A stretch of DNA of 64,000 nucleotides from the IMG/VR virus record IMGVR_UViG_3300042554_003148. One strand, given 5' to 3'. The DNA is from an uncultured virus (IMG/VR IMGVR_UViG_3300042554_003148). Taxonomy: Duplodnaviria; Heunggongvirae; Uroviricota; Caudoviricetes. This document shows positions 3,001 to 62,478 of the stretch, piece after piece (the stretch's first letter is position 1; each line of letters starts with the position of its first letter). The notes under the pieces were generated by a model. It was not told the DNA's origin. It saw only the letters and a program-made list of their open reading frames with translations, and did no database searches. The translations under genes and the position numbers were made by a program.

Positions 3001-6000
3001 CTGTATAATATTATCCGATGTTAAGGTTTTAAATGATAAATTTTGTGCAGAAGATCCTGATACTTGTAAACAGCTTTGAGCAACTTGATTTGTAGCAGCA
3101 GCGTATATCCAATCGAGCCATCTTTCTGACGAGCAATTAAATTCTACAAACTGATATTGTAAAGTTTCTACAATATATTCTATAAACTCATTAATCCCCG
3201 GTTCTATATCGGCCCTATTCATTGAACCGCTTACGTCTACAAATATTAAAATTCTAATTGGGGTCTCTTGATCTGTTTGTTCAATAATCGGTAAGAAGTG
3301 AGTTTCGAATTGTGTTAAAATATCGTTATAAGTTGTTGGTCTACTTACTTTAACCACCCTGTCTGTTCCAAAAGGAAGTTTAGGAACAGCATTAGATGGA
3401 TATATCCATTGTGTACTATCTGCTGGAGCTAATACTATAAATCTTTCAGCATCTACAGCTCCATTTTCTATTAGAGATGTAACATTATTGGTATCTTCGA
3501 CCCAGTCTTTTCCTATAGTACCTAGGAGTCCAACATAGTCCGGATTTGCTTCGTCAATAAATATCATGATAAAATCTGTTGGTAAAATAACAGCTGGTGG
3601 TATGTATATACCAGTTACTTCTGGTCCAATAAATTCGCAATGTTTAGTTAATGTTACTACTCTAAAATCATAATATTCTCCTAATTCTAATCCTGTTATA
3701 GATGTCGATGCTGTATCTAATATAAAAGCGTCTCTAATCCATGATGATGAACTAGTTTTATACTCTATAACATATCCTTCTATATCTGGATACTGTGGTA
3801 TTTGATCTTCCCAGCTCAACGATACAATATTATCACTAACCTCGTAATTAGTAATTATTGATGATGCTACAGTAGTAGCGCCACACTCAACAAAGTCCGG
3901 ACACTCCAAAATAAATGATTCGGTTCTTGATACTCCACTAGTTTTATCTTTTATGATAGTTTCCAGTATAAATTGTTTTAACTCAACATTTTTAGTAATG
4001 CCAACAAAAGCATTTTGTCTAGTATTAGATGCTTTAAAAGTAAAAAATTCTTTATCTAAATATGCTCTATTACTAAAATCTGCATCTAAGCATTTATCTG
4101 GTGACGGAGTAGGAGTTGGTGTGGGGGTGACGCTGGGCGTTGGTCCAAATACTGGTAATGTTGGTGGCGGGGTTGTGGGAGGAGAAACTAAATTGCAATC
4201 ATAGTCTGTAAATTGTACTTTTCCATCCGGCTTGCCATTACCAAAACCATCTGCTTCTACGCACTGAAATAAATTAGAGAAAGATCTATCTGGTAAATCA
4301 GATTGTGTGGGCCATCTCCAATATCCAGCATTGGTACCTCCTCCTTTATAGTATGCTGCTTTATACCATTCACTATAGCTTGGTAAAAAATATTTAGCAT
4401 TAGCGTTTCTAACAATAGGTTGGTCAAAATTTTCTGCTGTTGTTCTGCCATTAAGTGTATACGCGCCATCTTCTGTTGTTGTATTGTCTTGGCTACCATT
4501 AGGCTTTCCATTGTGTAACCAATTACAAAATCTAGCGGCAGAAAACCAGTTAACAAATACAACTGGTTTATTATTCATAGGCTGCGGTCTATTGTTTGCA
4601 GAAGTTGTTTTTGAACTATATGTATAATTACCAGACGTTCCACTTCTAACAATACCTCCTTTGGTATTGCTTATCATATTAGTATCGTATAATTTATAGA
4701 TATCTGTTTTTGCTACAGCATTAAGAAATTCTACATATTGACAATTCGTTACTTCGTACTGACCAATTTTATATTCATAAGATACAGCCCCTACAGGATC
4801 TGTGGTAAAAATTGGATTATTAGGATTACCAGCATCTCCAACAGTAACAAAATATGGTAAATTATTAGGATTAGTTAAACTCGCTATTCTAAATCCATGA
4901 CTAGCTACTTTTAGTGTCGGATCTTTAGCATGATAGGATGTTTTTGTGTAATCAAGCTCATTATCTGGACTATCAAATCCTCCACCCAGACACCATCTTC
5001 TCGTTACTTTACGACCACCCACTACCGAAACATGATGTTCTTCTGTCCATTCTTCAGCGTTCCCACCCTGATCATATGTACCATATGCGCTAGGTCCACC
5101 ATTAGAGCCAACTGTAGTAACATTACCATTGTCAATCCAAATTGGGCCTTTGGCACATAATTTTAGATTTGCACTATTAGGACCGGGAGGAAAAGTTAAA
5201 GAATATACACTATAAATACCTAAACTATTAACAGCTCGACATGTGATATATAAAATTCTTGGAGTTAATTCGTAGTAAAAAATATTAACAGGATCGACAG
5301 CATCAAAATCTATGGTGTCTTGTACAGTATCGTTGAGTAGATTGATTACAGACAAGGAATTTGAGTCTGTATTACACACATATAATTTTTTAGCAAAATT
5401 AATCAATGCCATAGACGTTGGCGATGATCCAACAGCGATTGTTTTTTCTATGGTTCTTGTTGTTAGATTAAGAACACTAATATTATTACTAAGATAATTT
5501 GTAATATATCCTTTATCATTTAATGCTACAAATGACCATGGTCTTAAACCACTAGAATTAATATTGCTAATAACACTATCGTTAACCGGATCTATGATAC
5601 TAATAGAATTAGATTCTGTATTACAAACATAAATTAAATTATTGTGAAGATACAGGGATCTCGGACCATTCTGTACTGTTATTGATGTTATAAATTGATA
5701 TGTTGTGGCATTAAAAATATTGATAGTAGAATTGGGCGAACTTACTGTGCCAGTATTAGTAACATAAATTTTATTATTTAGATATAGCAAGCTAGCAGGA
5801 CTGGTACCGACATTCAATATAGTTTGTATAACAGTGTTATTAGTAGCATTTATAATACTTATACTATTATCATCAGAATTAATAACATAAATTCTATTAT
5901 CTATAGAATTACTAATAATATCAGTTGGGTTATTGCCAACAGATACGGTGCTAAGTTGTGTTTTTGTTGCGAGATCAACAATACTAATAGTGTCGCTGTC

Positions 6001-17554: not shown

Positions 17555-20500
17555 TTATGTTAATGATCTAGGATCAATATCTATATTAAAATTAATAGTA
17601 TTATTTTCTGGATTTTTGGCTTTTAGGTCTCTAAACGCCCCCTTAATTGCTGATACCACAATTCCTGCTATATCTGGTCGTAATTGATTCAAAACCGTGT
17701 CTCCGTTGATGGTTACAACAACATCATGTTTTCCGGTAATAGTAATTTGTGGAGGAATATAAATATTACTAAGTATATTAGCAATATTATTTAATCTATT
17801 AACAAAGTTATCAATACTAGCAATATCGCCGCTAGTATTAGATACACCACCAGCAGCATTGTTTGGTTGTTTTAGATTGGACAATGCTTTGTCGAATGCT
17901 TCTGTGATACTACTTGTTATGGATCCGACTAGACCATTAAGATATTTTGTAAAATCGAATGATTGAGCATTTCCCATCATACCACCTAAGAATTTATATT
18001 GTGGTATGTACCCACCTTTATTTAGATAGTTAACTATTCCACCTCTAGCATAATTTCCGCTATTTATTGCTTCTAATACTGGTTTATATTTTTGAGTTGA
18101 TTGTCTATTAATAACAAATTCGCCAGGCGTTAACATAGCCGGAACAGTATCTGTGCCTTTTGGAGCAAAATTAACAAAGGAGCCACCGCTAGCATATAAT
18201 GGAACAGGACCTCCCTTAGCAAGTTTCATAGAAATTCCTTCTGGTAATCCTGCTTGTTTTGCTTCTTCTTTAATCTCTTCTTCTTTTTCTTTGATTCTAG
18301 CTTCTAATAATGTAATCAGTCTCGACGATGTTGGCAAAGCGCCATAAATATTACCAGTTAATAATAAGTGTGCTTCTGTTGCTTTTTTCTGTAGATTATC
18401 TATATCTGTGGCTCGTACCGCATCGGTTCTTAAAGATTTTATATTATTTTCAATTTTATCTACAGATAATCCTTTATATAATAGAGAATCTTGAACATTA
18501 TACCACTCTCTTAGTTGATTCAAAGCGTCTATGAAGCTAGTATCATATAATTTTCTTCCTTTTTTATCGGTAGCTTTTGTATAATATTCTTTTAGTATAT
18601 CAATTATATTTAATCTAGTCTTGGGTCCAGAAAATAGATTTTCAGGCGTTAATGCCATTTTATGAACATCTTGCCATGTTGTGGCTCCAGCATATTCTGG
18701 TTGTTTTCCTTTTGGATTTGTTCCGCTCTTTAGGCCAGTCTTAGGATCAACATCGTGTAGTATCGCGCCTTCTGCTAGATCAGTAATTTGATCAGATACT
18801 CCAATATCCACATCTCCTCCAGCAAAAGCTTTAGATCGTATTAAGGCAATTTCTCTATTTATAGCAGTAAGTACTGTTTCTTGGGTTATTGGTGGCGTTT
18901 TACGAAAATATAATGTTTTATCAAGACCTCCTTGATTAACTGTTACTGGATCCCCATATAATTTTCTATCTACTGGGATACCTAAGTTTTTCAAATATTC
19001 AGCACTTTGTGCAGGATTAGCTGGCTTATATAAGTCTACATATAATGATCTCCATGCATCTATAATAGCTCTTCTAGGAGATGTTACGTCGTTAATGTTG
19101 GTAGCTTCTTGTGCTAATTTTCCGGCTATCATACCAACTTGACTAATTTTATCTGGTGGGGTAGCTGATATTTTTATTCCTGTTCCATCAGCTAAATTTT
19201 GTGATAATACTGGTTGAATAGCACGGGCTATTGATAATCTGATTGGTTCACTAAACTTAGCTTCATCGCTAGTTACTTTTTCTCTTTGTACTGTTGCTGC
19301 TTTAGTTTTAGCGATTAATGTCCTAGCATTCTTTATATCTTCTTCTCGCTTCTTTTTGTAATTTTCTGCAAAAAAGTTTTCGACAGGAATTATATTCTTT
19401 CTACCATTAGTAGATGTTATTACGCTAGCTTTTTCTGAATCCTGTAAGCTCATTTTATATGTATCTGGTATATCAGTAAATAAACTAGAATCAATCAAAC
19501 CTATATTTTCACCATTAAGATTATATTTAAATGGTTCTCCTGGAGGAGCAGTCTCTTGACCTGTTAATACGTCATATATTGGAGTATTATTCTTTAAATT
19601 TCCTAATAAAACATCTATAGAATCAGCATATAAAGATTTATTATTAGTTGATAATAATTCTGCTAATGGAAATTTAGATTTTGGATCTTGTGGTTTAACT
19701 ATAATATAATTTAAAGGATCTCCAACAAAAGCCTTACTAATCGTATCATATAGTTTGCCATTGATTTGATCATATGTGAAATTAAATGGAGCAGTATCAT
19801 ATACTGATGGGGTTGTGGTAATCAATTTAACAAGTCCATCTTTACCTCCAATACCAAAAGCTGTCTGAGAACCACTAAAAATTTCTTCTCTAGCCCCTTG
19901 TATAGTATTGAATGCATTAGAAATCCATGGTAATTTTCTTGGATTTTTAGCGGCACCTGTGATCCTATCTTTCTGACTAATTTCTATAAAATCATTTTCA
20001 GATAGAGCAAATTTATTAGCATCATCAATATTCTTATATGCACCATTTTTTATAATATCATTTTGTTGTAAAATATTTTTCCATTGATCTTTTGGTATAT
20101 TATATAATGTTATTGGAAATTCTATTCCTCCTTTATCGAATGGTTGACCGAGATTAAAACTAGCCCTAAAAGTATTTCTATTATATAAAGCTTCTAAATC
20201 AGCTAAATATTTTTTAATATTTAATGATGATTGTGACTCAACAAAATCTTTTTCTTTTTTCATATTATCTATAGCATTTTCGATAGCATTATAAATTGTA
20301 TCATTCTTAACAATATCCGTATTTAAATATGATAACTGAGACTCTACGTCATTGTATGGAATATGCCAATCAGATGCTGTTTGGGCATATTGCTTTAATC
20401 CTCCAGCTCCGCCACCACGAAAACTACCTATGCTTCTAAAATTATCTATACCGGCTACAACTTGTGTCATACCACTTAATGCAGATTGTCTAAAACTAAG

Positions 20501-23500
20501 TATATTTCCTAAACCAGATCCTCCAGCGGCTCCTAAAATAGAAGGATCTTTTGTTAATAATCCTGGATTTGTAGTATCTTCATATGATAATCCCTCTAAT
20601 ATATAATCATTCCCTACTGATCTTACTTTAACAGAAGACTGAAAATTAGGAGCTTTCGATTTTTGAATGTTATTTAGTATTTCTTTTATATTCTTAAATT
20701 TATATTTATCATTATAGGTTTGTAAAATATTTTGATAATTCTTTTTAACAGTATCAAAATCGAGCTGTCTTATAGGCAATAAAGAAATTTTATCTCCATC
20801 TAAAACAGTATTACTTAAGTATGATGAATCTGGAAGTCTACCTACACTTTTAACTGAAATACCGGCATTTTGAGTGGTAGATGGAATAATTTTAGGAAAA
20901 GAAAGATTCGAACCAAATACAGCGTCTGTGACACCAATATCTGCCATTTGTATACTTACACCATCATATCCGATGCCTCTTCTGGCGTTTAAAGTACCAA
21001 GCTCAAGACCTGGTTTATTGTTACTACCTCCTCGAACTCCGGCAAATTCTCCCAATGGTCCAGATTTTTCTGAAATTGCATAATATGAATTGGGAAATTC
21101 ATAGATTGGGTTGCTAGTTATTGCTGATCCAATACCAGTATTAGGTTTAACATAATCTGAAATATTCTTATCTAATGCTGGATATGTTCCACTTGTTATT
21201 AAGTCTTGTTGATTTCTTGATGCATAATCAGCTCCTAGAAAATCCATACCTCTAGCTTTCCATTTTTTATCAACAACAAGTCCACCATCAGCATAGTAAC
21301 TTACCCTACCTCCTTTATTATAATTTCCACTATTAATAGTTTTTAGTAAAGATAAATTATTTTTTGTAGCGCTCTTATTAACAACAAACTCTCCAGGAGT
21401 TAACATAGCAGGAACAGTATCTGTTCCTTTGGATTGAAAATTAATTTGTTGGCCTTCGCTGGCATAAACCACGCCGCCAAGTCTCATACCGGGTGCTGGT
21501 TTACCATTATTTGCAAGTTCTACTAATTTCCATATACCATTTCGCATTTCATCTAATACTTGGTTTTCAAAATTAAGCTTAACACCTTGGATAGAATGGG
21601 CTAATTTTTCTGCTGCTATTTCAGCAGTATTTTGTGCCATAAGTTGTTGAATTTGTCCAAGCATCATATTAGCTTGAGATTGTTGAGCAAGACTACTTTT
21701 ATAGTAGGCTATTGCTTCCTGCATTTCTGGATCTTCTTCTGGGTTTCTTAAACTATCTAATACTTGAGCAAATAACGGATTTACGCCTTGTCCGCTTTCT
21801 TTTAACATGCTTTCTAGTACATTTGCTCTTAATTCATTTTGTTTTTGTCCTTCTCCTAGTAATGGAGCTATCATATTAAATGTTTGAAGATCTTCGCCTC
21901 TTTGTTCTGATGTGCTTAAATTAGTTCTACCAGCCATATTATTACTTAATCGAGCTATAGAATTATTTAATTTAGCAACTTCTCCTGGATCGGAGGTAAC
22001 AACTTTTTCAAGCAAGTTCATGCCAGCTTGTCTTTTAGCTTGAACTTCTTGAATTTTATTCATAGCGGCCTCGGCCATTTCTGTGCTATCCGCCATCTGT
22101 TTTAATGCTTCATAATTTTCTCTTAGACTAACATTAACGTTACGCAATCTATTTTGCATTAACATAAACTCATCACGACCAGCTGGTCCTCTATTAGCAG
22201 CAGTATCGCTCATTCCTTGTATTTGTGATCTAGTATTTTCTAGATTAAGAATATTTTGACCAATAGCAGCAGGATTTGTTGGTCCTCCTGTTAATGAGCG
22301 TGTTTGTTCATTAGCTATTTGTTGTTGTTGAAATAATGAAGTTGATTTCCCAAAAGCTTCATTAAGTTTTAGTAATCCTTGCGTTTGAATATCACTGGCT
22401 CTTCTAAATCGTGAATTAGCCTCTATTTGATAATCAACCATTTGATTCATAGCATTAGAATAATCATTTAGATTTTTTTGATAAAATTCTAGTGCTTTTA
22501 TGGCTGTTTCTTCTGCTCTTCTAGCAGATCCTATAGCGTCTGCAAATGCTGGTACTTGTTCAACAATCTCGTCAAAACTTACATCTTTAGCGTCTGTTCC
22601 GCTTTTACTAATTTCAGCAAAAGCTTTATTGACTTGATTACTAAGTTTATCAGTAAGATTGCTTGGTAAACCTAAGTCTCTTAAATTTTTATCTAATGAT
22701 GAGCGAATACCAGCAGCTATTCTTTCATTAGTAGCTTCTGGATTCTTTTCTATTTCTCTATTTACAGTAGATAGTACTGTCTTTTCTAGTTTGTTACCTA
22801 AGCCAAGAAGAGGGCTAACAATATCAGATTGCGATCCAAAAAATCCAGCAGCTTGACTCACTGCTTCTTTTCCTTCTCTTGGACTATAAGCGTCTAGGTT
22901 TCTTAACACATTTAAACTTTTAATAGCTATCTCACCAGATTTTGCATTACCGCTTAATGCTGCTGCTGATAATTCTGCTGATCTGCCCATATTATCTAGT
23001 TCAAAAGATGTTTTTTCAATCGACTGATCCATATTATTAAACATACGTTCTAAACTAACAATAAATTTTTTCATCTCTCTATTAAGTTTATCAATTTCCA
23101 TGGATCGTAAAGAAGCTTCTAAGTTGATACGAGCCCTATACTCTGCCTCTTGAGCTATAACATTACGTTCCATAGCGGCTTTTTGCTGATCGCTGAGATT
23201 ATTACTTGCTCGTATTCTTAATATTTGTTCTTGAATAACTGGATTACTTTGAGCTATATTTTTAGCAAGCTGTGTGGGAGCACCGGTTGCATCTTTTAAT
23301 TCTCCCATAACGTCTTGCATACTAGTTCCTGTTCTTAATTTCTCTTCAAACAGTCTGAGGGTAGCATCAGCAACTGGTTTGTAAGCAGCAGATTGCTCTT
23401 TGGCCATATCGGGAGCCATTTTTTGCATATAGAAGTTTCTAGTTTTTTCTCCGCCACCAAAGGTATCAGTAGATGCTATATATGCTCCAATTCCTTGTTT

Positions 23501-26500
23501 TTCTAATATCATACTCCTTTGAGCAGCCTCGCTTCCTCCTCCCAAAGCATCAAAAAGATTAACCCACATAGCTTTAGGAACTTCAGCATCTATACGTATA
23601 CCTTCGGCAACATTCGTGCCGGCAATGCTTAATTCTTGTCGAATATTATCTAATAAATCTAATCTTGTTATGTCTTTACTAAAATCTTCGAATGCATTAC
23701 TTACTTTTTCCATAGCGTTTTCAACATTTTTTGCTGCTAATGCTTTATCAAATTCTCTAGCCGCATTATGAGCGTCTTTTAATGCTGCTGCTATTCCAAT
23801 AGCTGCCACTCCTATAACTGCTCCAGCAGCAACAAAAGGATTACTCATAAATTTTATTATTTGTGGACCAATACTACTTGCTAAATTACCAACACTTCCA
23901 CCCATAGAGCTTAGACTTTTTATAGTAGAGTCAACAGTGCCAGGTAATTGAGAGAGCGCAGCAAGACCAGTACCAAAAGTTGAACCGAAGCTCTCTATGC
24001 CAGCGGCGGCAACAACAGACCCTCTATCATTTTCTCCACCAAACATTTTTATAGCACTAGATAGAGCGGAAGTAAATGCTGTCACTCCTACTGCCCCCTT
24101 GGTCATATAAGAAGACATTTTATTTAGAGATTTTATATTATCGTCGTAGCCTTTACTAGCTTCTATAAGACCTGCACTAGCTAATGATTCCGCAGCTGCT
24201 GTTGTTATTCCAAGTTGTTCAGCTAATTTTTCTGATGCTATTTTTTGAGCTTCTGCACTAGTCATTGTACCATGGAATACTTGTTGTAGTTTTGTAGAAC
24301 TACTAATGATATCATTTAAATTTAAGCCTTTACTAAATCCACTAGTAATTTCTGTAGCAATACTAGCTAATTCTTTTGATGCTAACGCTGGATTTATTTC
24401 TTTTATTTGTGCAATTAGTGAGTCCTGTATAGATTGTACTTCTGTATTTGCTTTATCTTTAACGTCTGTGCCTTTCTTTTTAGATGAATCACTTAATTCT
24501 TTTAGTTTAGTCTGTTTTTCTGTTTTAGACAAAGAAGCATCGTTCAATATTTTGGCTTTTTGTGATTGGTATTCTGATTTAATAGCGTCTAGATCTGCTT
24601 TTTTTCTTTGATTAATAGTTTCTAATCTGGTTTTATTTTCTAATGCTAAAATTCTAAGAGTATTTTGTTTTTCTGCCGGATTCATAAGTTCTTTAGCACT
24701 ATCAATTAGAGCTTTTCTCATTTGAGCTACTTCTTGATCAAAACTAATACCTTTTGCTTTTGCTCTTGAGGCAACTAGATCTGTATCGTCTTGTGTTCCA
24801 CTAAAAGAACCCGCCGAAACTGGCCTTGGAGGAACCGGTGGCGGAGCTGGCCTTGGAGGAACCGGTGGCGGAATTGGTCTTGTTGGAACAGGCGGTGAAA
24901 CCGCCGAAACTGGCCTTGGAGGAACCGGTGGCGGAATTGGTCTTGTTGGAACAGGTGGTGGAGCCGCCGAAACTGAACTTGGTGGAACCGATGGTGGAAC
25001 AAACTGAGTTGGAGCCGCTGATGAAGAGCCGGGCGCAGATTGCGCTCTACTACTGCTTAATGATTTTTCTGACTCAATAGCTTGAACAGCGCCAGTTTTA
25101 CGAATCTCTATTAGTTGAGCTTCTAGTTTTCTAATTTGTTCTAGTTCAGATGCTGCTACAGCTAATTTTTCTTCATAACGTTTGGCCAACTCTTCTGGAC
25201 TACCACTACTTCGCCCAGTTAGTCTAGCATCTATGGCTCCTCCTTTTGTCTTATAATCTCCTCCGTATGCTGCTATTTCTTCTCTTTCTATTCTACCAAT
25301 CTCCTCTGGTGATGCTTTGCTGATTAATTCTTTAGCGACGCTACCAACCGGACCTTCTGTAGAATATCTTTTTAATAATTCTTCAGAACTTTGTGCGGGA
25401 TTAGCCGCATAGTAAACTTTTCGTTGACGTTCATATAATTGTCTTCCGCCACCAACATCTTTTGGACCTTCTCCTCCCAAACCTCCCTGAAAACCTAATT
25501 TAGTAGCCGCTGTTCTATATATACCAACTAATTCAGCTTCTATTTTTTCAATAGCTTTTTGTGCTTCTTTACTTAATTCTCCACCATCTTTAAATTTTCT
25601 AATTCCAATACCTCCTCCTTTATTTAGTCCCAGAGCCTTCGTTGCTTTTTCTCTTATTATAAAACTTCCTACTGGTAGATTTGTTGGTATGCTATCACTA
25701 GTACCACTTCCCGGACCATTAAATATGCTAATTCCACCATCACTAAATCGCCCCATACCATTTTTATCAGCTTGATTCATACGGCTTAGTGTTCCATAAC
25801 CAATTCGTTTAGCAAGTTTAGGAGGCACATAAGCCTCGCCGTTACTTACTAAGGCCGGAACAGAACCACCATCAGCAAAACGGTCTATGGGTCCACCATC
25901 GGCTCTTTGAAAATATGATAGGGCCATGCTTCTAGAATCAACAGGTTTTTGTGCTTTATTATTATTTCTTTTTACTTGTTCTGGATCATTAAGCAAGGTG
26001 GGACTCTTGCTATAACCGCTCTGTAGTATCCAAGCCGGATCGGTTGCTGGAGGCCATGTTTCTCTTCTTCCATAAAGCTTAGGATCTATTAGTGCTTGGT
26101 TTTTAGTCCAATTTTCTGGTTCTAATGGTGTTTTTTTAACATCTCCTCTGTTTTTAAAGTAATAAGCCCAGACCTTTTGAGCATCCGCACTTACCATACT
26201 TCTGTCAGAAGTTAGCATATCTCCTTTTTCACTAACAGCTTCCATAGCCACATCATACAATCTTGGTCCATATCCTTTAGTAGCTTTTGATAATCCAACA
26301 TACCATAGATTATCTTTATATTTCATTGCTTGTACATATCCTGATCTACTCTCATTTTTAAGATATCCAACACTAAGCATATTTCCATCTTCTGTAACGC
26401 TTATTTTTCCAAAATCTTTTTCTTTTTTATTTGTTTGTTGGCTTCTATTTCCGTATAATCCTTGCATTAATCCCGACATAGCTTCTGTAGAATCTGCTAA

Positions 26501-29500
26501 TCCTCCCAGAGCAAACTTTTGTCTACTTATTCCAGCACCTCCCAATAGGTCATCCAGAGTACTATCCAAAATTCCCCTTAAATTTTCATCTAATAATGGT
26601 AATTTTTGTACTAGTGTTGTTAAAAATTCTTCTTTGCCATTATCTTCATATTTATCTATAACATCTTGACTTATTTTACCTCTTAATAAAACATCATTAA
26701 CTCTAGGATTAAGCGGCTTAAAGGCTTTGGCATTTGTGGTGGAGTTAGTTGCTGCCCAAGTTTTTCTTAATTCTGGAATATATTCTGGATCACTATTAAC
26801 ATATTTTGCAAATGACTCTTTGGCTGATCCCATCATCAAGCTACTTAGTCCACTAAGTTTATAACTTCTTCCATAAGCAACATCAGCACTATTATATCCA
26901 GTATTTCCAACCAGAGCATCAAAAGCATCGGCCACATCATCATTATTTCCACTAAATAAACTAGCAACTTTTGCCTTGTATGCTTCAAATGATTGAGCAT
27001 TTTTAGTTCTAAGACTATTAAAAAGTTGATGAGTTAATTCATGATATAAAATACTATAATCTTGACGTTGCCTTGTATTAAAAGGATTAGTCGCTATGCC
27101 AACGCTACCACGACCACTCTGTTTTGCAGATTGTAATCTAGATTCTTTTGCAGCTTTAATGGCTGCATTATTTTTATCAATAAGAGATCTTTGTTGTTTT
27201 TGTAGATCGTTTAATTCTACTCTTAGTTTTTCTGCTAGAGCTACATCATAACCAAAACTACCATCTTCATATGTTGTAACAGAAGTTTTGATTGTTTTTA
27301 ATATTTGTTTCTTTTTTTCTTCTATTAGTTTAGTATATCCAAATAAATCTTGTTTATCTTGTTCAGTATAACCATATGGTGTTAAATCTACTCCTTGTAA
27401 TCCTCTGGTTCCTGGACCAGAAGGATCCTTGTTAAATAATGCTGTAGCAGGATAATTAACACCAAAATCTAACTGAGTTGGTATAGCAGACAAAAAGTCT
27501 GTCTGTGGTAATCCTATGACTCGTGCAAATTGTCCCATTCTTTCAAAAACTGTATTTCTACTTATTTTATCCTTAAACGAATTTATGAATAGTTCTCTAC
27601 TAAAAGGAGATTCGTATCCTTTTTGTACAGCCTCTTCGTCTACAATCATTCTTTCATTACCAGGATACGTTGAAAAAACCTTCTCCATTTGTTCTTGTTC
27701 TAATAATTTTTCCATTTCCCGAACATAAGCATTACTTATTCTTTTAGGGAATTTGAATGTTCCAGAACCAAAGGTCGCTGTTCCTCCTTTAGCAAAGGCT
27801 TGTGGATTTTCTGTAAAGTATCTACTAAATTCTTCTCTGGCTTTTGAAAAACTATCTCCGTCCAAAGTTCTTTTTACTTCTGTTTCAATATTCGGAGGTA
27901 ATCCAAAAAGTTGAGCTCCTCTGCCTAGTCCCTGTGGAAAATCTATTGCTCTATTTCTTTGTAAAGCATCAACATTTATATTATAACCCAATAATTGCGA
28001 TAGTGCCGCTTCTAACATACCTCCTTCAATATTAGATTGTCCAAATTTTTCTTCTGCTGGTCCTTTAAGTTCTGGAACTTCACCATAACGAAAAGTACTT
28101 TTACCAGCAGCCATTGTTGCTCTAATATTTTCTTCACTATCATCGATTAATTTTTCAGCTCTTGCAACATTAGCAGCTTTAGCTTTTGCTATATTTGTTC
28201 CTAATCCTTGACTAACTCCAGTAACATCTTGTTCTAAATATGGTAATCCAAATCTATTAAGAGTTGAGGCTATAATATCCGCTGTGCTTTGAGGACGAGC
28301 CGTTAAGATACGACTAAACATCCTAACGTATCCAGGATTTTTTTGTTCTATACTGGCCAATCTTTTAGCTAGTGAGGTTGGTCTAGCTTGGGCCAGACTC
28401 TCCATAACTTTTTTTCTATCCGAGTAGGCTGGTAAATCTTCTTTACCATTTTTATCTAGCATTTTTGTTCCAAGAGCTAGTGTTTCATCAAAATCTATTG
28501 CTAATGGTTGAATTGGTCCTCGAATATTTCTATTACCTAATCCGCCTAATGCTGCTGTATCCTGAATATCTTCGGCAAATTTTTGACGAGTAGCTCTATT
28601 AGCCTCTTGCATAGCTTCTATTTGTGGTAAAAAGCTAGATTGAAATCCTCTAACATAACCATAAATTTCTCTACCATCCTCCAACTTCCAGTCCGAAAAA
28701 TCTTTGTTATAATCTAATGGAAATAATCCGGCAATTGCAACTTTTCTCATGGCTGCTTCTTTTGCTTCTCTAGCAGCATCTTGTTTTCCTGTCTTAGCTA
28801 ACGCCCTATTTATAAATTTAATAGCTTGTGCTATATTTTTACCAGCTTTAATATTACCAGCATTTAGTATAGCTCCGATCTCTCTTTCTCCGGATCCTAA
28901 TCCTAGTATTTTTTTAACTCCGCTAGCATTTCCAAAACTGGATAATTGTTCTAAAATTACAGTTTCAATAGATTTTTTTTCTTTAGCAGCTATGCCCTCT
29001 ACTGTTCCGCCAACGACAAATTTTTGAATTTTTCCACCGAGATTTCGTTCTATAGCATAAACAACGGCTGTATTGTCTGGGGTGTATGTTTCATCAAAAT
29101 TTGGTTCTAGTCCAGATCTATACTTTAATTCCGCGGCCGTAATATCTTTACCAGTTTCTTTCTTTGTAAGCCCAAATTGTTTCTTTAATCTACCAGACAA
29201 CTTAGGGATATCAGGAAATTTCTGATCCGGCGCTTCGATACCATAATTTTGTCCAACATAATTCTCGAACATGTATCCTCTTATAGCTCCCTTGCCACTA
29301 TCGTTAATTTTCAAATCATCAATATTTTTATATGAAATTTGTTGTTTTGATAGCTGTTCTTCTGCTCCAGGTAGTTGCTTCTTTATATATCCTCCAGCAA
29401 CATATTTATTCATCCTTACCAAATTGCCTCTTCCATACTTATTAACAGCTCTATTACTCATTACCACTTCACCAGGTTCTAACAATGCTGGAACTTTGTC

Positions 29501-31501
29501 TCCTTTTCCACTACCGGGAACACTGCCTCCTTTAGAAAAACCCAAAATACGACCACCACCACTAGCAGTAGTTGGTCCGCCGCCTCCGAAATCTTTTCTA
29601 TCTAAAGTAGCATCTAAATTAACTAAAGCAGCATAAACATTTTCTAGAGAACTACTATTACTAGATAAAGCATTAGTATTATTTAATAACGCAGAATTAT
29701 ATGATGCTAAGGTGCTATTAATAGATACTAAGTTGGTATTCAATGCAGTTATAGCTGGTGTTAAGGCATTAATAGAAGACATTGAAGATACCAAAGAATC
29801 TATTTTACCAGAAAGCTTATCTAGAGCGGCGCTATTTTGATCCAAATCTCTACTAACTTGTTCTGTTTTAGCTCCAACTAAACTACTACCCAAATTACTG
29901 CCTATAGATCTTGCTATTCCGGGTTGTTCTTCTCCCTCTTGTCCTTTTGGTACTTTCTTTAATCCTCCTATAAAACCACCAGTAAATTGAGTAGCACTTC
30001 TTATACCGGCACCAGCTCCTAAGATTGCTAAAACCGGTAAAACTCCTTTAAGAGCACCACTAATTTTAATTAATCCACTAACTAAACCAAGAGCGCCTTT
30101 TGCTAATGTTTGAAATGTATCACTCTGTCCTAAGCTACGAATTAATGTTAAAAATTCTTCTCTTACTTTTACAATTTGATTAGCCAAACTTAATTGTGCT
30201 TTAGCAGCATCTGCTGCTAAACTTCCTTGACCAGCTTGTGCTACTTTAAGTGCTTCTTGAGCAGTGGCGAACTGTTGAATCAAAGGAATAACCTTTCCGA
30301 TCTGTCGAAATCCACCAAGCTCTTCAACAATTTGACTAAATCTTATATCTCTTGGATCAATTCTGTTGAGTCCTTCACTTAATAATTGTACAGCTTTATA
30401 TGCTCCAACAAATTTACCCTCAACATCTGTTAAGCTTACTCCATATTCTCTTAGTGCTTCGATTGTTCCTTGTCTTTGAATACGAGTAAAAATAGTTCTT
30501 AATCCAGTAGCAATAGTTTCGGCACTTTCACGAGTTGTAGCACGAACACTAGTAAATACAGCAATAAATTCATTTAAAGCGTCTGTGCCTTCGCTAACTC
30601 CTTTGCTGGCATTTGCAAACACACCACCGGTACGCTGTATAGCAGCAATAATATCGCTACTTTCCACAGCAAAAGCAGCAGCCACAGCATTAACAGACCC
30701 GAGAGCTTTTTCTAGTTCTTTAGCGCTTATACCAAACTGTCTCATTAATGCAATAGATCCTTCTACGGTTTGATTTATATCATCAAAACTAGGAGCTAAA
30801 CTACTACGAGCCAGCGCCTCTAATGCTGATCGTGTCTCAGTAGCGCTCAAACCAGCTTGTGCTAAAGTACTAGAAACCTTAATTAAACTATCAGAACTAA
30901 CACCTAATCCAATAGATAATCTACTTATTTCATCCTGCAATCCTTTTAATCCTTCGGCGCTTTTACCAGTAACTTGTTGTAATCTTACCAGCTCTCTATC
31001 AAATTCGATAAAACTTTTTAAACCGCTATTAATAGCTCTGTTGAGACTAAAAAATACTCCAGTAACAGCACTAAATGCCGCAAAACGACGAACAGCAAGA
31101 GCGCTTTGACGACCAAACTCTTCCATTTCTGTACGAGCAACGCCGACGCTTTTGGCGCTTTTTGACGCTGAAACTCCTAAATTATCTGCTCCTTTTGCTG
31201 CTTTACTAAGATTATTGGATAGTTTTGTTGAGGAATTTCCAACATTAGATACACTTTGACCAAAATTTCTAATAGCATTAGAAGCTGCTGTTGCATTAGA
31301 CGCTACATTTGCTAAATTAGTATTTAAATCTTGTAAAGACTTATTTAGTTTTGATGCATTATTAATAGCAGCTGGATCAATTTTTATATTAACATCACCA
31401 GTAATAGTTCCCAACTGTTTCTTAATATCAGAAACTATTTGTCTAACATTAGACGGTCCCCTCAAATTTAACTGAGCAGTTAAGTTAAAAGCTTGAGCCA
31501 T
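17555..31501 (-). CDS. Tail tape measure protein (4648 aa) with inserted enzyme-like cassettes
   Basis: TP901-type TMP core near the N-terminus (LAQAG...TRESAETIATGLRTIFTRIQ...GGFRQIGK), long helical regions, position after tube and chaperone genes, four GxDxVPAxLxPGExV-type motifs. Confidence 0.9.
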   Translation of the reverse strand: MAQAFNLTAQLNLRGPSNVRQIVSDIKKQLGTITGDVNIKIDPAAINNASKLNKSLQDLNTNLANVASNATAASNAIRNFGQSVSNVGNSSTKLSNNLSKAAKGADNLGVSASKSAKSVGVARTEMEEFGRQSALAVRRFAAFSAVTGVFFSLNRAINSGLKSFIEFDRELVRLQQVTGKSAEGLKGLQDEISRLSIGLGVSSDSLIKVSSTLAQAGLSATETRSALEALARSSLAPSFDDINQTVEGSIALMRQFGISAKELEKALGSVNAVAAAFAVESSDIIAAIQRTGGVFANASKGVSEGTDALNEFIAVFTSVRATTRESAETIATGLRTIFTRIQRQGTIEALREYGVSLTDVEGKFVGAYKAVQLLSEGLNRIDPRDIRFSQIVEELGGFRQIGKVIPLIQQFATAQEALKVAQAGQGSLAADAAKAQLSLANQIVKVREEFLTLIRSLGQSDTFQTLAKGALGLVSGLIKISGALKGVLPVLAILGAGAGIRSATQFTGGFIGGLKKVPKGQEGEEQPGIARSIGSNLGSSLVGAKTEQVSRDLDQNSAALDKLSGKIDSLVSSMSSINALTPAITALNTNLVSINSTLASYNSALLNNTNALSSNSSSLENVYAALVNLDATLDRKDFGGGGPTTASGGGRILGFSKGGSVPGSGKGDKVPALLEPGEVVMSNRAVNKYGRGNLVRMNKYVAGGYIKKQLPGAEEQLSKQQISYKNIDDLKINDSGKGAIRGYMFENYVGQNYGIEAPDQKFPDIPKLSGRLKKQFGLTKKETGKDITAAELKYRSGLEPNFDETYTPDNTAVVYAIERNLGGKIQKFVVGGTVEGIAAKEKKSIETVILEQLSSFGNASGVKKILGLGSGEREIGAILNAGNIKAGKNIAQAIKFINRALAKTGKQDAAREAKEAAMRKVAIAGLFPLDYNKDFSDWKLEDGREIYGYVRGFQSSFLPQIEAMQEANRATRQKFAEDIQDTAALGGLGNRNIRGPIQPLAIDFDETLALGTKMLDKNGKEDLPAYSDRKKVMESLAQARPTSLAKRLASIEQKNPGYVRMFSRILTARPQSTADIIASTLNRFGLPYLEQDVTGVSQGLGTNIAKAKAANVARAEKLIDDSEENIRATMAAGKSTFRYGEVPELKGPAEEKFGQSNIEGGMLEAALSQLLGYNINVDALQRNRAIDFPQGLGRGAQLFGLPPNIETEVKRTLDGDSFSKAREEFSRYFTENPQAFAKGGTATFGSGTFKFPKRISNAYVREMEKLLEQEQMEKVFSTYPGNERMIVDEEAVQKGYESPFSRELFINSFKDKISRNTVFERMGQFARVIGLPQTDFLSAIPTQLDFGVNYPATALFNKDPSGPGTRGLQGVDLTPYGYTEQDKQDLFGYTKLIEEKKKQILKTIKTSVTTYEDGSFGYDVALAEKLRVELNDLQKQQRSLIDKNNAAIKAAKESRLQSAKQSGRGSVGIATNPFNTRQRQDYSILYHELTHQLFNSLRTKNAQSFEAYKAKVASLFSGNNDDVADAFDALVGNTGYNSADVAYGRSYKLSGLSSLMMGSAKESFAKYVNSDPEYIPELRKTWAATNSTTNAKAFKPLNPRVNDVLLRGKISQDVIDKYEDNGKEEFLTTLVQKLPLLDENLRGILDSTLDDLLGGAGISRQKFALGGLADSTEAMSGLMQGLYGNRSQQTNKKEKDFGKISVTEDGNMLSVGYLKNESRSGYVQAMKYKDNLWYVGLSKATKGYGPRLYDVAMEAVSEKGDMLTSDRSMVSADAQKVWAYYFKNRGDVKKTPLEPENWTKNQALIDPKLYGRRETWPPATDPAWILQSGYSKSPTLLNDPEQVKRNNNKAQKPVDSRSMALSYFQRADGGPIDRFADGGSVPALVSNGEAYVPPKLAKRIGYGTLSRMNQADKNGMGRFSDGGISIFNGPGSGTSDSIPTNLPVGSFIIREKATKALGLNKGGGIGIRKFKDGGELSKEAQKAIEKIEAELVGIYRTAATKLGFQGGLGGEGPKDVGGGRQLYERQRKVYYAANPAQSSEELLKRYSTEGPVGSVAKELISKASPEEIGRIEREEIAAYGGDYKTKGGAIDARLTGRSSGSPEELAKRYEEKLAVAASELEQIRKLEAQLIEIRKTGAVQAIESEKSLSSSRAQSAPGSSSAAPTQFVPPSVPPSSVSAAPPPVPTRPIPPPVPPRPVSAVSPPVPTRPIPPPVPPRPAPPPVPPRPVSAGSFSGTQDDTDLVASRAKAKGISFDQEVAQMRKALIDSAKELMNPAEKQNTLRILALENKTRLETINQRKKADLDAIKSEYQSQKAKILNDASLSKTEKQTKLKELSDSSKKKGTDVKDKANTEVQSIQDSLIAQIKEINPALASKELASIATEITSGFSKGLNLNDIISSSTKLQQVFHGTMTSAEAQKIASEKLAEQLGITTAAAESLASAGLIEASKGYDDNIKSLNKMSSYMTKGAVGVTAFTSALSSAIKMFGGENDRGSVVAAAGIESFGSTFGTGLAALSQLPGTVDSTIKSLSSMGGSVGNLASSIGPQIIKFMSNPFVAAGAVIGVAAIGIAAALKDAHNAAREFDKALAAKNVENAMEKVSNAFEDFSKDITRLDLLDNIRQELSIAGTNVAEGIRIDAEVPKAMWVNLFDALGGGSEAAQRSMILEKQGIGAYIASTDTFGGGEKTRNFYMQKMAPDMAKEQSAAYKPVADATLRLFEEKLRTGTSMQDVMGELKDATGAPTQLAKNIAQSNPVIQEQILRIRASNNLSDQQKAAMERNVIAQEAEYRARINLEASLRSMEIDKLNREMKKFIVSLERMFNNMDQSIEKTSFELDNMGRSAELSAAALSGNAKSGEIAIKSLNVLRNLDAYSPREGKEAVSQAAGFFGSQSDIVSPLLGLGNKLEKTVLSTVNREIEKNPEATNERIAAGIRSSLDKNLRDLGLPSNLTDKLSNQVNKAFAEISKSGTDAKDVSFDEIVEQVPAFADAIGSARRAEETAIKALEFYQKNLNDYSNAMNQMVDYQIEANSRFRRASDIQTQGLLKLNEAFGKSTSLFQQQQIANEQTRSLTGGPTNPAAIGQNILNLENTRSQIQGMSDTAANRGPAGRDEFMLMQNRLRNVNVSLRENYEALKQMADSTEMAEAAMNKIQEVQAKRQAGMNLLEKVVTSDPGEVAKLNNSIARLSNNMAGRTNLSTSEQRGEDLQTFNMIAPLLGEGQKQNELRANVLESMLKESGQGVNPLFAQVLDSLRNPEEDPEMQEAIAYYKSSLAQQSQANMMLGQIQQLMAQNTAEIAAEKLAHSIQGVKLNFENQVLDEMRNGIWKLVELANNGKPAPGMRLGGVVYASEGQQINFQSKGTDTVPAMLTPGEFVVNKSATKNNLSLLKTINSGNYNKGGRVSYYADGGLVVDKKWKARGMDFLGADYASRNQQDLITSGTYPALDKNISDYVKPNTGIGSAITSNPIYEFPNSYYAISEKSGPLGEFAGVRGGSNNKPGLELGTLNARRGIGYDGVSIQMADIGVTDAVFGSNLSFPKIIPSTTQNAGISVKSVGRLPDSSYLSNTVLDGDKISLLPIRQLDFDTVKKNYQNILQTYNDKYKFKNIKEILNNIQKSKAPNFQSSVKVRSVGNDYILEGLSYEDTTNPGLLTKDPSILGAAGGSGLGNILSFRQSALSGMTQVVAGIDNFRSIGSFRGGGAGGLKQYAQTASDWHIPYNDVESQLSYLNTDIVKNDTIYNAIENAIDNMKKEKDFVESQSSLNIKKYLADLEALYNRNTFRASFNLGQPFDKGGIEFPITLYNIPKDQWKNILQQNDIIKNGAYKNIDDANKFALSENDFIEISQKDRITGAAKNPRKLPWISNAFNTIQGAREEIFSGSQTAFGIGGKDGLVKLITTTPSVYDTAPFNFTYDQINGKLYDTISKAFVGDPLNYIIVKPQDPKSKFPLAELLSTNNKSLYADSIDVLLGNLKNNTPIYDVLTGQETAPPGEPFKYNLNGENIGLIDSSLFTDIPDTYKMSLQDSEKASVITSTNGRKNIIPVENFFAENYKKKREEDIKNARTLIAKTKAATVQREKVTSDEAKFSEPIRLSIARAIQPVLSQNLADGTGIKISATPPDKISQVGMIAGKLAQEATNINDVTSPRRAIIDAWRSLYVDLYKPANPAQSAEYLKNLGIPVDRKLYGDPVTVNQGGLDKTLYFRKTPPITQETVLTAINREIALIRSKAFAGGDVDIGVSDQITDLAEGAILHDVDPKTGLKSGTNPKGKQPEYAGATTWQDVHKMALTPENLFSGPKTRLNIIDILKEYYTKATDKKGRKLYDTSFIDALNQLREWYNVQDSLLYKGLSVDKIENNIKSLRTDAVRATDIDNLQKKATEAHLLLTGNIYGALPTSSRLITLLEARIKEKEEEIKEEAKQAGLPEGISMKLAKGGPVPLYASGGSFVNFAPKGTDTVPAMLTPGEFVINRQSTQKYKPVLEAINSGNYARGGIVNYLNKGGYIPQYKFLGGMMGNAQSFDFTKYLNGLVGSITSSITEAFDKALSNLKQPNNAAGGVSNTSGDIASIDNFVNRLNNIANILSNIYIPPQITITGKHDVVVTINGDTVLNQLRPDIAGIVVSAIKGAFRDLKAKNPENNTINFNIDIDPRSLT
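24811..25000 (-). repeat. Tandem Pro-rich repeat in the TMP (63-bp unit; PPPVPTRPIPPPVPPRP)
   Basis: Near-exact nucleotide repeats such as ggaaccggtggcggaattggtcttgttggaacagg, present twice. Confidence 0.9.
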
Positions 31502-57911: not shown

Positions 57912-58179
57912 TTGATTTTTTATTATCAGATATTAATTTGCTAAAAACTGCTTCGTATGCGTTTTCGTTTCCTTCTATAAGAGAGTGATGAAATTTACAC
58001 AAAGTGATTCCGTTATTTATATTATATCTCAAATCAACGCTATCAACCCATCTTTTGATATGGTGAACATGTAATTTTTTAGATGCTAAACATCCTGGCC
58101 ATTGACATTTGTATTGATCTCGTTTTTTAACCTCTTGTCTAAAATTTTTGTATAATGGATCGTTATAATTTCTAAACAT
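57901..58179 (-). CDS. HNH endonuclease
   Basis: RDQYKCQWPGC...HVHHI...NGITLCKFHH. Confidence 0.9.
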   Translation of the reverse strand: MFRNYNDPLYKNFRQEVKKRDQYKCQWPGCLASKKLHVHHIKRWVDSVDLRYNINNGITLCKFHHSLIEGNENAYEAVFSKLISDNKKSNDK

Positions 58180-62056: not shown

Positions 62057-62478
62057 ATATTAAACTTTTAGAAGCTACGGATAATATACAAGATTATATA
62101 GATTGCGTGAAGGATCTAAATAGTCATTATACTAATTTGAGTTCAATAGAAGATATTAAATATGTGCTAGAGCACAGACCGTCAAATATATTAACTTTTG
62201 TGATGGTGAACGATAGTGATAGGATAGTATCAACAGCAACGGTGATTATGGAAAAAAAATTAAGATATCAAAATTTATGTATGCATATAGAGGATGTTGG
62301 CACTCATCCACATTTTCGTAATCTTGGATACGGTTCGGAACTAATTCGATACTGCGTAAAAATAGCAGAAGAGAACAAATGCTACAAAGTTAAATTGAAT
62401 TGTGAAAAAGATTTAGTAAGCTTCTATGAGAAACTAGATTTTAAGGTTGGCGGAAACCACATGGGGCGATCATTATAG
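62053..62478 (+). CDS. GNAT acetyltransferase, GNA1 (glucosamine-6-phosphate N-acetyltransferase)-like
   Basis: TATVIMEKK...HIEDV....FRNLGYG..LI...CYKVKLNC.....FYEK. Confidence 0.75.
   Translation: MNIKLLEATDNIQDYIDCVKDLNSHYTNLSSIEDIKYVLEHRPSNILTFVMVNDSDRIVSTATVIMEKKLRYQNLCMHIEDVGTHPHFRNLGYGSELIRYCVKIAEENKCYKVKLNCEKDLVSFYEKLDFKVGGNHMGRSL

Follow-up and report, generated by a model that had tools for sequence, protein, structure and literature searches.

The 4,648-aa protein encoded in the window (the whole 64,000-nucleotide stretch of an uncultured Caudoviricetes virus, IMG/VR record IMGVR_UViG_3300042554_003148, that was analysed) is the tape measure protein (TMP) of an uncultured phage, and it is probably built as a TMP scaffold with cassettes swapped at short conserved joints, several of them enzymes which would be delivered to the host at entry. 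The original prediction of a TMP doubling as a magazine of effectors stood with regard to the TMP itself, the swapping of GG-bounded blocks and the presence of HAD, GNAT-like and HExxH blocks, while no support was found for its nuclease-like blocks.

The frame of the ORF at 17555..31501 (-) is open over 13,944 bases and encodes 4,648 aa followed by a stop codon. The identification as a TMP is borne out by a match to PF10145 (PhageMin_Tail; E 5.8e-23, 82.3 bits versus a cut-off of 33.2) and by matches to five PHROG TMP families (3e-21 to 2e-6). Head and terminase genes lie on one side of the gene and large distal tail proteins on the other, with the terminase, the tail-fibre-like and the large downstream proteins encoded on the same strand; no tail tube or chaperone genes were identified around it. 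The phage DNA seen amounts to about 124 kb, and a related 101-kb contig is 70% complete according to CheckV. Among the cultured phages of INPHARED there was no near match to the window, and relatives of the TMP were collected as 307 proteins of 2,556–8,134 aa (E <= 0.001). The layout of the chain is given in Table 1. The position of the C-terminal domain would fit the hub-binding end of other TMPs, by the parallel with lambda as described in the available part of PMC12617516.

Table 1. Features along the tape measure protein, in residues and in window positions; for the single xxGG motifs the position is that of the first codon base.
Feature	Residues (aa)	Window position (strand)	Remarks
N-terminal TMP unit	1-642	29576..31501 (-)	kept in 118/121 relatives
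PhageMin_Tail (PF10145)	190-384	30350-30934	in N-terminal unit
Hydrophobic segment	470-501	29999-30094	in N-terminal unit
Joint module copy 1	655-704	29390..29539 (-)	FSKGG ... GDKVPALLEPGEVV ... YVAGG; module extent about aa 640-712
FSKGG	655	29539 (-)
YVAGG	700	29404 (-)
Cassette A	705-827	29021..29389 (-)	'nuclease-like' block of the original prediction
Cassette B	828-1240	27782..29020 (-)	with flanking FVVGG, FAKGG; HAD model
FVVGG	828	29020 (-)
HAD core of cassette B	995-1141	28079-28519
Cassette B motif I, DFDET	1003-1007
Cassette B motif II, TARP	1067-1070
Cassette B motif IV, LIDD	1118-1121
FAKGG	1236	27796 (-)
Cassette C	1241-1667	26501..27781 (-)	HExxH, from alignments
Cassette C motif HELTH	1487-1491	27029-27043
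Cassette C motif EDNGKEE	1619-1625
FALGG	1663	26515 (-)
Cassette D	1668-1865	25907..26500 (-)	GNAT-like model
GNAT-like core of cassette D	1695-1847	25961-26419	GYGPRLYD at aa 1743-1750
Joint module copies 2a and 2b	1866-1974	25580..25906 (-)	RADGG, FADGG, FSDGG, FKDGG; modules about aa 1869-1910 and 1914-1979
RADGG	1866	25906 (-)
FADGG	1875	25879 (-)
FKDGG	1970	25594 (-)
Block E and proline-rich repeat	1975-2140; 2150-2225	24827..25579 (-)	covered by 4/120 and 0/120 relatives, respectively; both near-unique to this phage
63-nt tandem repeat		24847-24999
Second TMP-like core unit	2230-3332	21506..24814 (-)	helical by assumption; from aa 2500 on covered by 104-114/120 relatives
Hydrophobic segment	2548-2578	23768-23860	in second core unit
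Joint module copy 3	3333-3407	21281..21505 (-)	GTDTVPAMLTPGEFVVN ... YNKGG ... YADGG; module about aa 3333-3409
YADGG	3403	21295 (-)
Block F	3408-4426	18224..21280 (-)	three [FY]xxGG motifs inside; covered by 35-55/120 relatives
Joint module copy 4	4427-4497	18011..18223 (-)	module about aa 4430-4499
LAKGG	4427	18223 (-)
YASGG	4436	18196 (-)
YARGG	4484	18052 (-)
C-terminal domain	4498-4648	17558..18010 (-)	conserved in 57/121 and 78/120 relatives

All GG motifs listed in the original prediction were found, within a few bases of where they had been placed. The strict form [FY]xxGG occurs 16 times in the TMP versus 2.26 ± 1.49 times (maximum 9) in 1,000 shuffles, and 121 giant TMPs have a median of 14 copies each versus about 2.5 after shuffling, with 121/121 exceeding three times expectation. 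A logo of 1,806 instances extends the joint to GG-x-[VI]-Q-[KR]-[FY]-A-x-G-G-x-V, longer than the motif originally described, and doublets spaced by 9 residues are common. The joint GG-x-V-x-x-[FY]-A-x-GG caps the end of a ~65–80-aa module (..G-T-D-T-V-P-A-M-L-T-P-G-E-F-V..). The GxDxVPAxLxPGExV-type module that had been predicted is real, but it is present in five copies and not in four with one split, since the 'split' copy is a tandem pair. In self-comparison of the five modules, the pair mod3/mod4 is 57% identical (E 7e-23), and mod1 matches the others at E 4e-7 to 1e-5. The module also matches at least 10 PHROG TMP families, mostly at 75–96% of family length (near the C-terminal ends), as well as the TMPs of Clavibacter and Ralstonia phages, and ordinary TMPs carry it once, near the C-terminus. 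No match was found at E <= 5 when the modules were searched against the lambda-type models of Pfam and NCBIfam, the lambda-type C-terminal TMP module being named tape_meas_lam_C. Copies 2a and 2b had a pLDDT of 30–63 when modelled as a monomer, and a three-copy complex prediction scored 0.00, which carries no weight either way. DNA microhomology was rejected as the basis of the joints: the motifs and the gene as a whole do not differ in their glycine codons, and the conservation thus acts at the protein level. An S24/S26-like self-cleaving module, considered on account of a motif resemblance, was dropped as the family searches lent it no support.

In-frame gain, loss, replacement and reordering of cassettes at the joints is strongly supported by sequence comparison with more than 200 metagenomic relatives. 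This matches the prediction of blocks bordered by GG motifs and exchanged exactly there, as the homology break points in relatives fall at xxGG. Internal BLASTP endpoints lay within 10 aa of a motif in 967/2,561 cases (38%, versus 6.9% expected), and homology stops exactly at xxGG in relatives that are about 94% identical across the flanking blocks B–D. Compared with 6% in random windows, a strict motif bordered the homologs of cassette C in 48/55 cases upstream and 50/55 downstream, those of cassette B in 31/69 and 55/69, and those of cassette D in 14/72 and 50/72, respectively; given the low upstream figures for D and B, the joint rule is not absolute. Homologs of cassette C start anywhere from aa 1 to aa 2,783 of the relatives, and 14–18 different left and 18–20 different right neighbours were counted for each of cassettes B, C and D. 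Four relatives (P0002, P0003, P0004 and P0015) have an unrelated insert, about 370 aa long, in the slot of cassette A. An ADP-ribosyltransferase cassette lies between LKAGG and LGIGG in one relative, and a precomputed domain list of the relatives includes staphylococcal-nuclease (SNase) and EF-hand domains. The 1,243 inter-motif segments of the 121 giant TMPs fell into 319 families, 211 of these being singletons, and were arranged in 118 architectures; length varies by as much as 1,070 aa (4,648 versus 5,718) between relatives with about 94% identity in common blocks.

With regard to the individual cassettes, structure models were made for cassette B and for cassette D with its module, from single-block alignments. 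Cassette B is confirmed by its predicted structure (pLDDT 87.3) as a HAD phosphatase fold, as had been proposed, and is closest to the T4 Pnkp 3'-phosphatase (5uj0_B; Z 11.1, rmsd 3.3, 125 aligned residues), followed by further Pnkp-type phosphatases (4xrp_A, Z 10.0; 1ltq_A, Z 9.7). Nearly all of its best 50 structure matches are HADs, the matches spanning model residues 155–317, and the top Foldseek matches are likewise HADs (probability about 1.0). The HAD motifs I (DxDxT), II (S/T), III (K) and IV (DD) are present in order: 20 sequences share D176, D178, T180, R242, K281, D293 and D294 without exception and T240 nearly so (>=90%), DFDxT is found in 68/69 homologs, and 57/69 have motifs I, II and IV in the expected order. 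None of the curated HAD family models matched the 20 cassette B members even at E <= 10, which places this putative phosphatase outside every catalogued family.

For cassette D the predicted GNAT assignment is backed moderately at the level of the modelled fold. The core has a pLDDT of 87–97, and 50/50 of its best 50 structure matches are GNAT or GNAT-like, with Z-scores of 5.8–7.2 that are 'middling' on the scale of the tool; Foldseek gave GCN5 (E 0.03, probability 0.97), the ESM Atlas only a weak Acetyltransf_1 lead, and Pfam no GNAT family match. All 74/74 homologs contain G[YF]GPx[LIM]Y at a strand-helix turn, which differs from the canonical acetyl-CoA binding motif A of GNATs (R/Q-x-x-G-x-G/A). 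In cassette C the HExxH motif, which is typical of zincin metallopeptidases, is invariant in the alignments (58/58 homologs, 56/58 with YHE[LM]THQ); 3/19 members weakly match M91, SprT and M78 in Pfam (E 0.02–0.21), and the ESM Atlas gave no match. For cassette A the nuclease-like designation found no support: it has 3 weak matches among 238 relatives and no family match, and hhalign did not relate its profile to that of the C-terminal part of cassette B (probability 1.4%). No PD-(D/E)xK nuclease family matched cassette A or this part of cassette B. More generally, Pfam, NCBIfam and PHROGs recognised none of cassettes A–D and F even at E up to 1–10, a profile search of the sequences of solved structures (PDB) with cassettes B and C yielded nothing, and among 34 short proteins homologous to C and D the only Pfam match was an ADP-ribosyltransferase, in 2. 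Cassettes B–D had no match in INPHARED either, where only the joint module matched other TMPs and where the Thermus phages of the P23-45 type should be included.

Taken together, a conserved TMP scaffold (the N-terminal PF10145 unit, the second TMP-like unit, which is assumed to be helical, the two hydrophobic segments and the C-terminal domain) carries a row of exchangeable globular cassettes, including the HAD phosphatase, the HExxH domain and the GNAT-like domain, with each cassette fenced by the short joint. This joint would be a protein-level junction tolerating any neighbour, so that recombinants which break there would stay functional. As TMPs exit the tail ahead of the DNA, and as the catalytic motifs have been kept despite the shuffling, we infer from TMP biology that the cassettes are most likely enzymes that reach the host ready-made, where they may act at the start of infection in host takeover or counter-defence. 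Such delivery has been proposed for the polyvalent proteins and shown for the fusion of TMP and RNA polymerase in P23-45. The lumen of a tail tube is about 4 nm wide, which three or six folded domains of 150–400 aa would exceed, and the cassettes must thus travel unfolded or lie elsewhere.

A different possibility is that the TMP is a true polyprotein, in which cleavage at the GG joints or next to them, in the manner of lambda gpH (to gpH* and gpHC), would free the cassettes in the virion or in the host. Lambda gpH contains FATGG (aa 733), GEFV and YATGG (aa 778) in a module-like stretch of aa 733–782, and hhalign aligned joint module copy 3 with its residues 738–784 (E 1.9e-4, probability 47%, 38% identity over 45 columns). 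The cut in gpH lies in a glycine-rich region, with the exact site and the catalyst given as unmapped in the available part of PMC12617516, and the 14-kDa C-terminal piece would by calculation start near aa 710–727, just upstream of FATGG. Since the module-like stretch adjoins this region, cutting at or near the joint module is plausible for the phage TMP. Processing by an embedded HExxH peptidase has been proposed for polyvalent proteins (PMC5512222, in the part available), and cassette C has retained its HExxH, but this cassette is present in just 47/120 relatives and hence cannot be the general processing enzyme. A GG-type cysteine protease was not recognised either: among 28 + 52 ORFs (about 124 kb) the sole protease matches in Pfam were an S8 subtilase domain and, below threshold, C57 inside the DNA polymerase, with many ORFs lacking a Pfam match so that such a protease could be missed, and a search of the related contig for Peptidase_C48 gave no match. 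Furthermore, some relatives have D, S or N in place of the second glycine (GD, GS, GN) at these same joints, and the conserved Val at +2 and the 9-residue doublets have a structural look rather than that of a scissile site. On balance, processing into separate proteins is rather unlikely. Broader, and unlikely, is the proposal that the [FY]AxGG/GEFV joint is a portable processing-and-docking signal common with lambda gpH, at which giant TMPs would each be cut at every joint after tail assembly, one tail then firing a combinatorial set of free enzymes ahead of the DNA. If true, the enzymes released would be a phosphatase, an acetyltransferase, a peptidase, an ADP-ribosyltransferase and others, and the same signal would account for the unmapped cleavage of lambda gpH.

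The TMP could also be a plain ruler, with all 4,648 residues setting a tail of ~700 nm (the predicted length of about 700 nm at 0.15 nm per residue is arithmetically correct) and the blocks being filler or relics without a role after ejection. In TM4 the motif embedded in the TMP reportedly counts toward tail length, which would fit such a ruler, as would P23-45 and P74-26, which according to the available parts of PMC10770324 and PMC10034513 combine 5,002-aa TMPs with tails near 1 µm. Catalytic motifs are however retained across divergent homologs, cassettes B and D gave high-confidence globular models, and the length differences of up to 1,070 aa occur between relatives ~94% identical in common blocks, making this reading very unlikely. 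Tail length itself does not discriminate, as P23-45 combines an extremely long tail with a TMP of 5,002 aa that bears an enzyme (PMC10770324, in the part available), so that enzyme delivery is compatible with a long tail. Finally, a chimeric assembly, or separate genes read through as one giant ORF, can be set aside as extremely improbable given the 13,944-base open frame, its 100% identity on two IMG/VR contigs and the size range of the 307 relatives.

The scaffold with cassettes swapped at joints is the preferred reading, and under it the tail ruler appears as an evolvable delivery platform. Its cassette types number in the hundreds, are mostly absent from Pfam, and would represent a reservoir of candidate enzymes for host takeover or anti-defence. 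A survey of mosaicism in phage proteins described a mosaic signal in TMPs, yet no genuine recent case was confirmed in the available part of that report (PMC10684548); the flanks of about 94% identity and the exact breakpoints seen here indicate clear recent TMP mosaicism. The joint also singles out FATGG/YATGG (aa 733–782) of gpH as a candidate region for the lambda cleavage that has gone unmapped for 50 years. Searches of the main texts of openly accessible papers returned no account of TMPs with arrays of cassettes bounded by GG motifs.

Among known systems, lambda gpH shares the arrangement of [FY]AxGG, GEFV, a helix and [FY]AxGG, and has a hydrophobic stretch and a glycine-rich run just upstream (compare aa 470–659 here), but it lacks an enzyme and contains a single module, close to its C-terminus, whereas the TMP studied here has five modules with cassettes in between. 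Polymorphic toxins similarly use a short conserved peptide to mark cassette exchange (VENN in CdiA and DPxGL in Rhs demarcate the variable cassettes, and are also the release site there), although sequence and machinery are unrelated and the likeness is one of analogy only. By description, the Sle1-type effectors of actinobacterial contractile injection systems are also TMP-derived modular carriers with interchangeable domains that are loaded into a tube, but they are the cargo of a tail-like particle and not a phage ruler, and have one C-terminal functional domain (PMC13277306, in the part available). The polyvalent proteins of Iyer et al. (2017) combine an array of conflict-type enzymes (ART, GNAT, metallopeptidase) in one chain, for which injection together with the DNA and subsequent processing have been proposed, but they are associated with the head or with MuF, and the word 'tape' occurs 0 times in the available text of PMC5512222; the Pfam polyvalent-protein domains, including those named in that text, did not match this TMP. 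A precedent is gp96 of Thermus phage P23-45 (also P74-26, G20c and TSP4), in which a virion RNA polymerase is fused to a TMP, the whole measuring 5,002 aa. As described in the available part of PMC10770324, it is a giant tail-delivered TMP with an enzyme acting in the cytoplasm, a metallopeptidase and membrane segments, but with a single fixed N-terminal enzyme instead of a swappable array, and with the GG joint undescribed in that account. Functional domains within the TMP which act on the host at entry are also found in TM4 gp17, T5 pb2 and SPbeta YomI, where the TM4 TMP carries an embedded cell-wall hydrolase motif (PMC1796659) and T5 has pb2C (PMC12617516), each as given in the available part of the source. 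These act on the peptidoglycan of the envelope and are without combinatorial cassette exchange, whereas the modelled Pnkp-like HAD and GNAT folds point to cytoplasmic targets.

The TMP gene is an open frame of 4,648 codons, found with 100% identity in two IMG/VR contigs. Its product has the phage minor tail/TMP domain PF10145 at aa 190-384 (82.3 bits, cut-off 33.2), and five PHROG tape-measure families have matches over its first 500-600 residues. The [FY]xxGG-type joints were all present at the positions originally predicted, and the strict form occurs 16 times in the TMP, where 1,000 shuffles gave 2.26 +/- 1.49 and at most 9. Across 121 giant TMPs the median is 14 per protein vs ~2.5, with 121/121 at more than three times the expectation. 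The logo of 1,806 joints, GG-x-[VI]-Q-[KR]-[FY]-A-x-G-G-x-V, has Val at +2 enriched 10.5-fold and a second GG 9 residues away, which makes the joint a short repeat, often a doublet. Codon use at the glycine motif is that of the whole gene, and therefore the conservation is at the protein level. The GxDxVPAxLxPGExV module is also real, but there are five copies rather than the four (one split) first counted, each capped at both ends by a GG motif. D, P-A-M-L, G-E, one Asn and one Gly are invariant in an alignment of 44 copies, and a low-confidence monomer model of the module region (pLDDT 30-63) has a hairpin and helix. Ten or more PHROG tape-measure families match the modules, most of them 75-96% of the way along the profile, as do the TMPs of Clavibacter and Ralstonia phages, so the module is an ordinary near-C-terminal TMP element, multiplied in the giant TMP. 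Elsewhere in the gene, 2.4 copies of a 63-nt tandem repeat, with 91% matches, underlie a proline-rich PPPVPPRP stretch at aa ~2150-2225, a stretch covered by 0/120 relatives.

Features of the TMP, the window and the related 101,115-base contig, of which L139, L140 and L141 are pieces
Feature	Location	Strand	Remarks
TMP open frame	window 17555-31501	-	
Cassette A	TMP aa 705-827		
Cassette B	TMP aa 828-1240		
Cassette C	TMP aa 1241-1667		
Cassette D	TMP aa 1668-1865		
Module copy	TMP aa 640-712	-	
Module copy	TMP aa 1869-1910	-	
Module copy	TMP aa 1914-1979	-	
Module copy	TMP aa 3333-3409	-	
Module copy	TMP aa 4430-4499	-	
63-nt tandem repeat	window 24847-24999		
Tail-region protein, ~3,139 aa	window 1-7602, on to base 57,911 of related contig (L141)	-	Peptidase_S8 subtilase aa 157-432; FGE-sulfatase-like domains, fn3, beta-propeller matches
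Four large ORFs	L140:5138-19901 and L141:1916-3892	-	2,726, 1,089, 1,104 and 659 aa; downstream of window's left end
Tail-fibre-like proteins	window 44260-47031 and 47067-48695	-	N-terminal Mtd_N, E ~6e-10
Terminase large subunit	window 54847-56871		
Nucleotide-sugar epimerase paralog	window 58175-59164	-	
Nucleotide-sugar epimerase paralog	window 61139-62053	+	
Acetyltransferase	window 62053-62475	+	
DNA polymerase III alpha, two ORFs	L139:7713-14055		PHP + NTPase; finger + HhH

The gain, loss and swapping of blocks at GG motifs, which the original prediction had treated as decisive, was found in alignment endpoints, junctions and architectures of the relatives. A word-indexed search confined to the 2,556-8,134 aa length band (1,376 candidates scored) returned 307 relatives, and HMMER, run as a full scan from aa 700-1875, reached 977 proteins with E <= 0.001. 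On the TMP, 967/2,561 internal BLASTP endpoints (38%, vs 6.9% for a uniform spread) lay <=10 residues from a motif; many of these endpoints are module cross-matches, so junctions were inspected as well. In relatives ~94% identical in B-D, identity begins at ..F[AV]VGG|TVEGIAAKEKK, with an unrelated ~370-aa stretch in place of block A, and all diverge past ..FKDG[GD]. Block D is missing with a clean break from one relative (P0003), and two others (P0004 and P0015) have different sequences after ..ISRQKFA.GG. Homologs of cassette C start at positions ranging from residue 1 to 2,783 of the protein that carries them, and have the strict motif at the upstream border in 48/55 and at the downstream border in 50/55, the corresponding numbers being 31/69 and 55/69 for B and 14/72 and 50/72 for D, against 6% in random windows; borders without it often carry degenerate forms, e.g. 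FMAGS or YAEGD. When the 121 giant TMPs were cut at the strict motif (segments >=80 aa, 70% mutual coverage), 1,243 segments fell into 319 families, including 211 singletons, and there were 118 distinct architectures, B, C and D each having 14-18 different left and 18-20 different right neighbours. The shared core consists of an N-terminal unit (118/121 giant TMPs), a second unit at aa 2500-3335 (104-114/120 relatives) and, in most relatives, the modules and C-terminus.

Searches of Pfam, NCBIfam and PHROGs gave no recognised family for any cassette of the TMP. The HAD block of the original prediction is cassette B, where the model (20-row alignment, mean pLDDT 87.3) matches HAD phosphatases over its residues 168-314. 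At the top of the 50 matches listed stood the 3'-phosphatase T4 Pnkp (Z 11.1, rmsd 3.3, 125 aligned), with Pnkp1 at Z 10.0, T4 PNK at Z 9.7 and nearly all others listed being HAD proteins, and Foldseek agrees. In the 20-row alignment all four HAD motifs are unchanged or nearly so, and motifs I, II and IV occur in order in 57/69 homologs; curated HAD models did not match B even at E <= 10. The C-terminal 90 residues of B stand alone in many relatives. The HExxH block of the original prediction is cassette C, in which the motif is present in 58/58 homologs and 3/19 members have weak matches to three different zincin families. Cassette D, the GNAT-like block, has a confident core (pLDDT 87-97), and its best 50/50 matches in VIA are GNAT or GNAT-like, including the anti-CRISPR acetyltransferase AcrVA5, but with Z only 5.8-7.2; G[YF]GPx[LIM]Y is present in 74/74 homologs. 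Small stand-alone phage homologs of D exist, and two short phage proteins (P0239 and P0212) combine an ADP-ribosyltransferase domain with a D-type domain, thus the D cassette circulates outside TMPs. The supposed nuclease-like block, cassette A, received no nuclease support and has three weak relatives. An ADP-ribosyltransferase cassette is flanked by LKAGG and LGIGG in one relative, and by precomputed Pfam lists 15 of 120 listed relatives have further domains, among them SNase (staphylococcal nuclease) and EF-hand. When 17 variable regions, each 2,299-2,850 aa long, were scanned, Pfam named only three domains, so that most of the cassette repertoire has no Pfam name.

The window is phage DNA: it encodes a terminase large subunit and tail-fibre-like proteins, and the TMP gene is followed downstream by a string of genes for very large proteins; INPHARED contained no close cultured phage. 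Base 1 of the window is base 59,726 of the 101,115-base contig (CheckV 70% complete), and window 41389-64000 extends ~22.6 kb past the end of this 100%-identical contig, so that ~124 kb of phage was open to inspection and the record from which the window comes must be longer than the contig. The subtilase of the ~3,139-aa tail-region protein is the sole Pfam-recognised protease near the TMP, and the four large L140/L141 ORFs had zero Pfam matches. Mtd_N is the N-terminus of the major tropism determinant, known from the BPP-1 diversity-generating system. The epimerase paralogs, on opposite strands, and the acetyltransferase after them may form a sugar-modification module. An RNase T-like exonuclease ORF lies between the two polymerase ORFs, and upstream of this split polymerase one ORF has PD-(D/E)xK and LAGLIDADG domains.

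Lambda gpH has a single module-like stretch at aa 733-782 (KFHFATGG..GEFVFTKEATSRIGVGNLYRLMRGYATGG; E 1.9e-4, probability 47% against the module profile), whereas the giant TMP has five. According to the Ur-lambda paper (PMC12617516), lambda and T5 are the only TMPs known to be cut, the exact site and catalyst in gpH are not known, and the cleaved-off fragment is unresolved over its N-terminal portion (about aa 690-817). A 14-kDa gpH piece would start at ~aa 710-727, just ahead of FATGG, which makes comparable cutting beside the joints of the giant TMP plausible. A simple GG cleavage code is argued against by the occurrence of GD, GS or GN in place of GG at the corresponding joints of some relatives, by the structural look of the Val conserved behind GG and of the doublets spaced by 9 residues, by the presence of cassette C in only 47/120 relatives, and by the lack of a recognised GG-type protease in the ~124 kb inspected.

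The ~700-nm tail originally calculated from the TMP length is not decisive. Phage P23-45, whose tail is extremely long, has in gp96 a TMP of 5,002 aa that carries an active virion RNA polymerase (residues 327-1124), for which the authors propose transit through the tail channel (PMC10770324). A tail of ~700 nm and the delivery of enzymes are compatible with each other. Three relatives of 7,733-7,872 aa (P0070, P0068 and P0045), on contigs of up to ~250 kb, would have tails >1.1 um if every residue counted. A literature search found no description of such a family, in which hundreds of giant TMPs are combinatorial arrays of cassettes bounded by the lambda-type joint. Enzyme-bearing TMPs are already published for TM4, T5 and P23-45, as are polyvalent proteins (PMC5512222, in whose text the word 'tape' is absent) and TMP-derived modular effectors of injection systems (PMC13277306).
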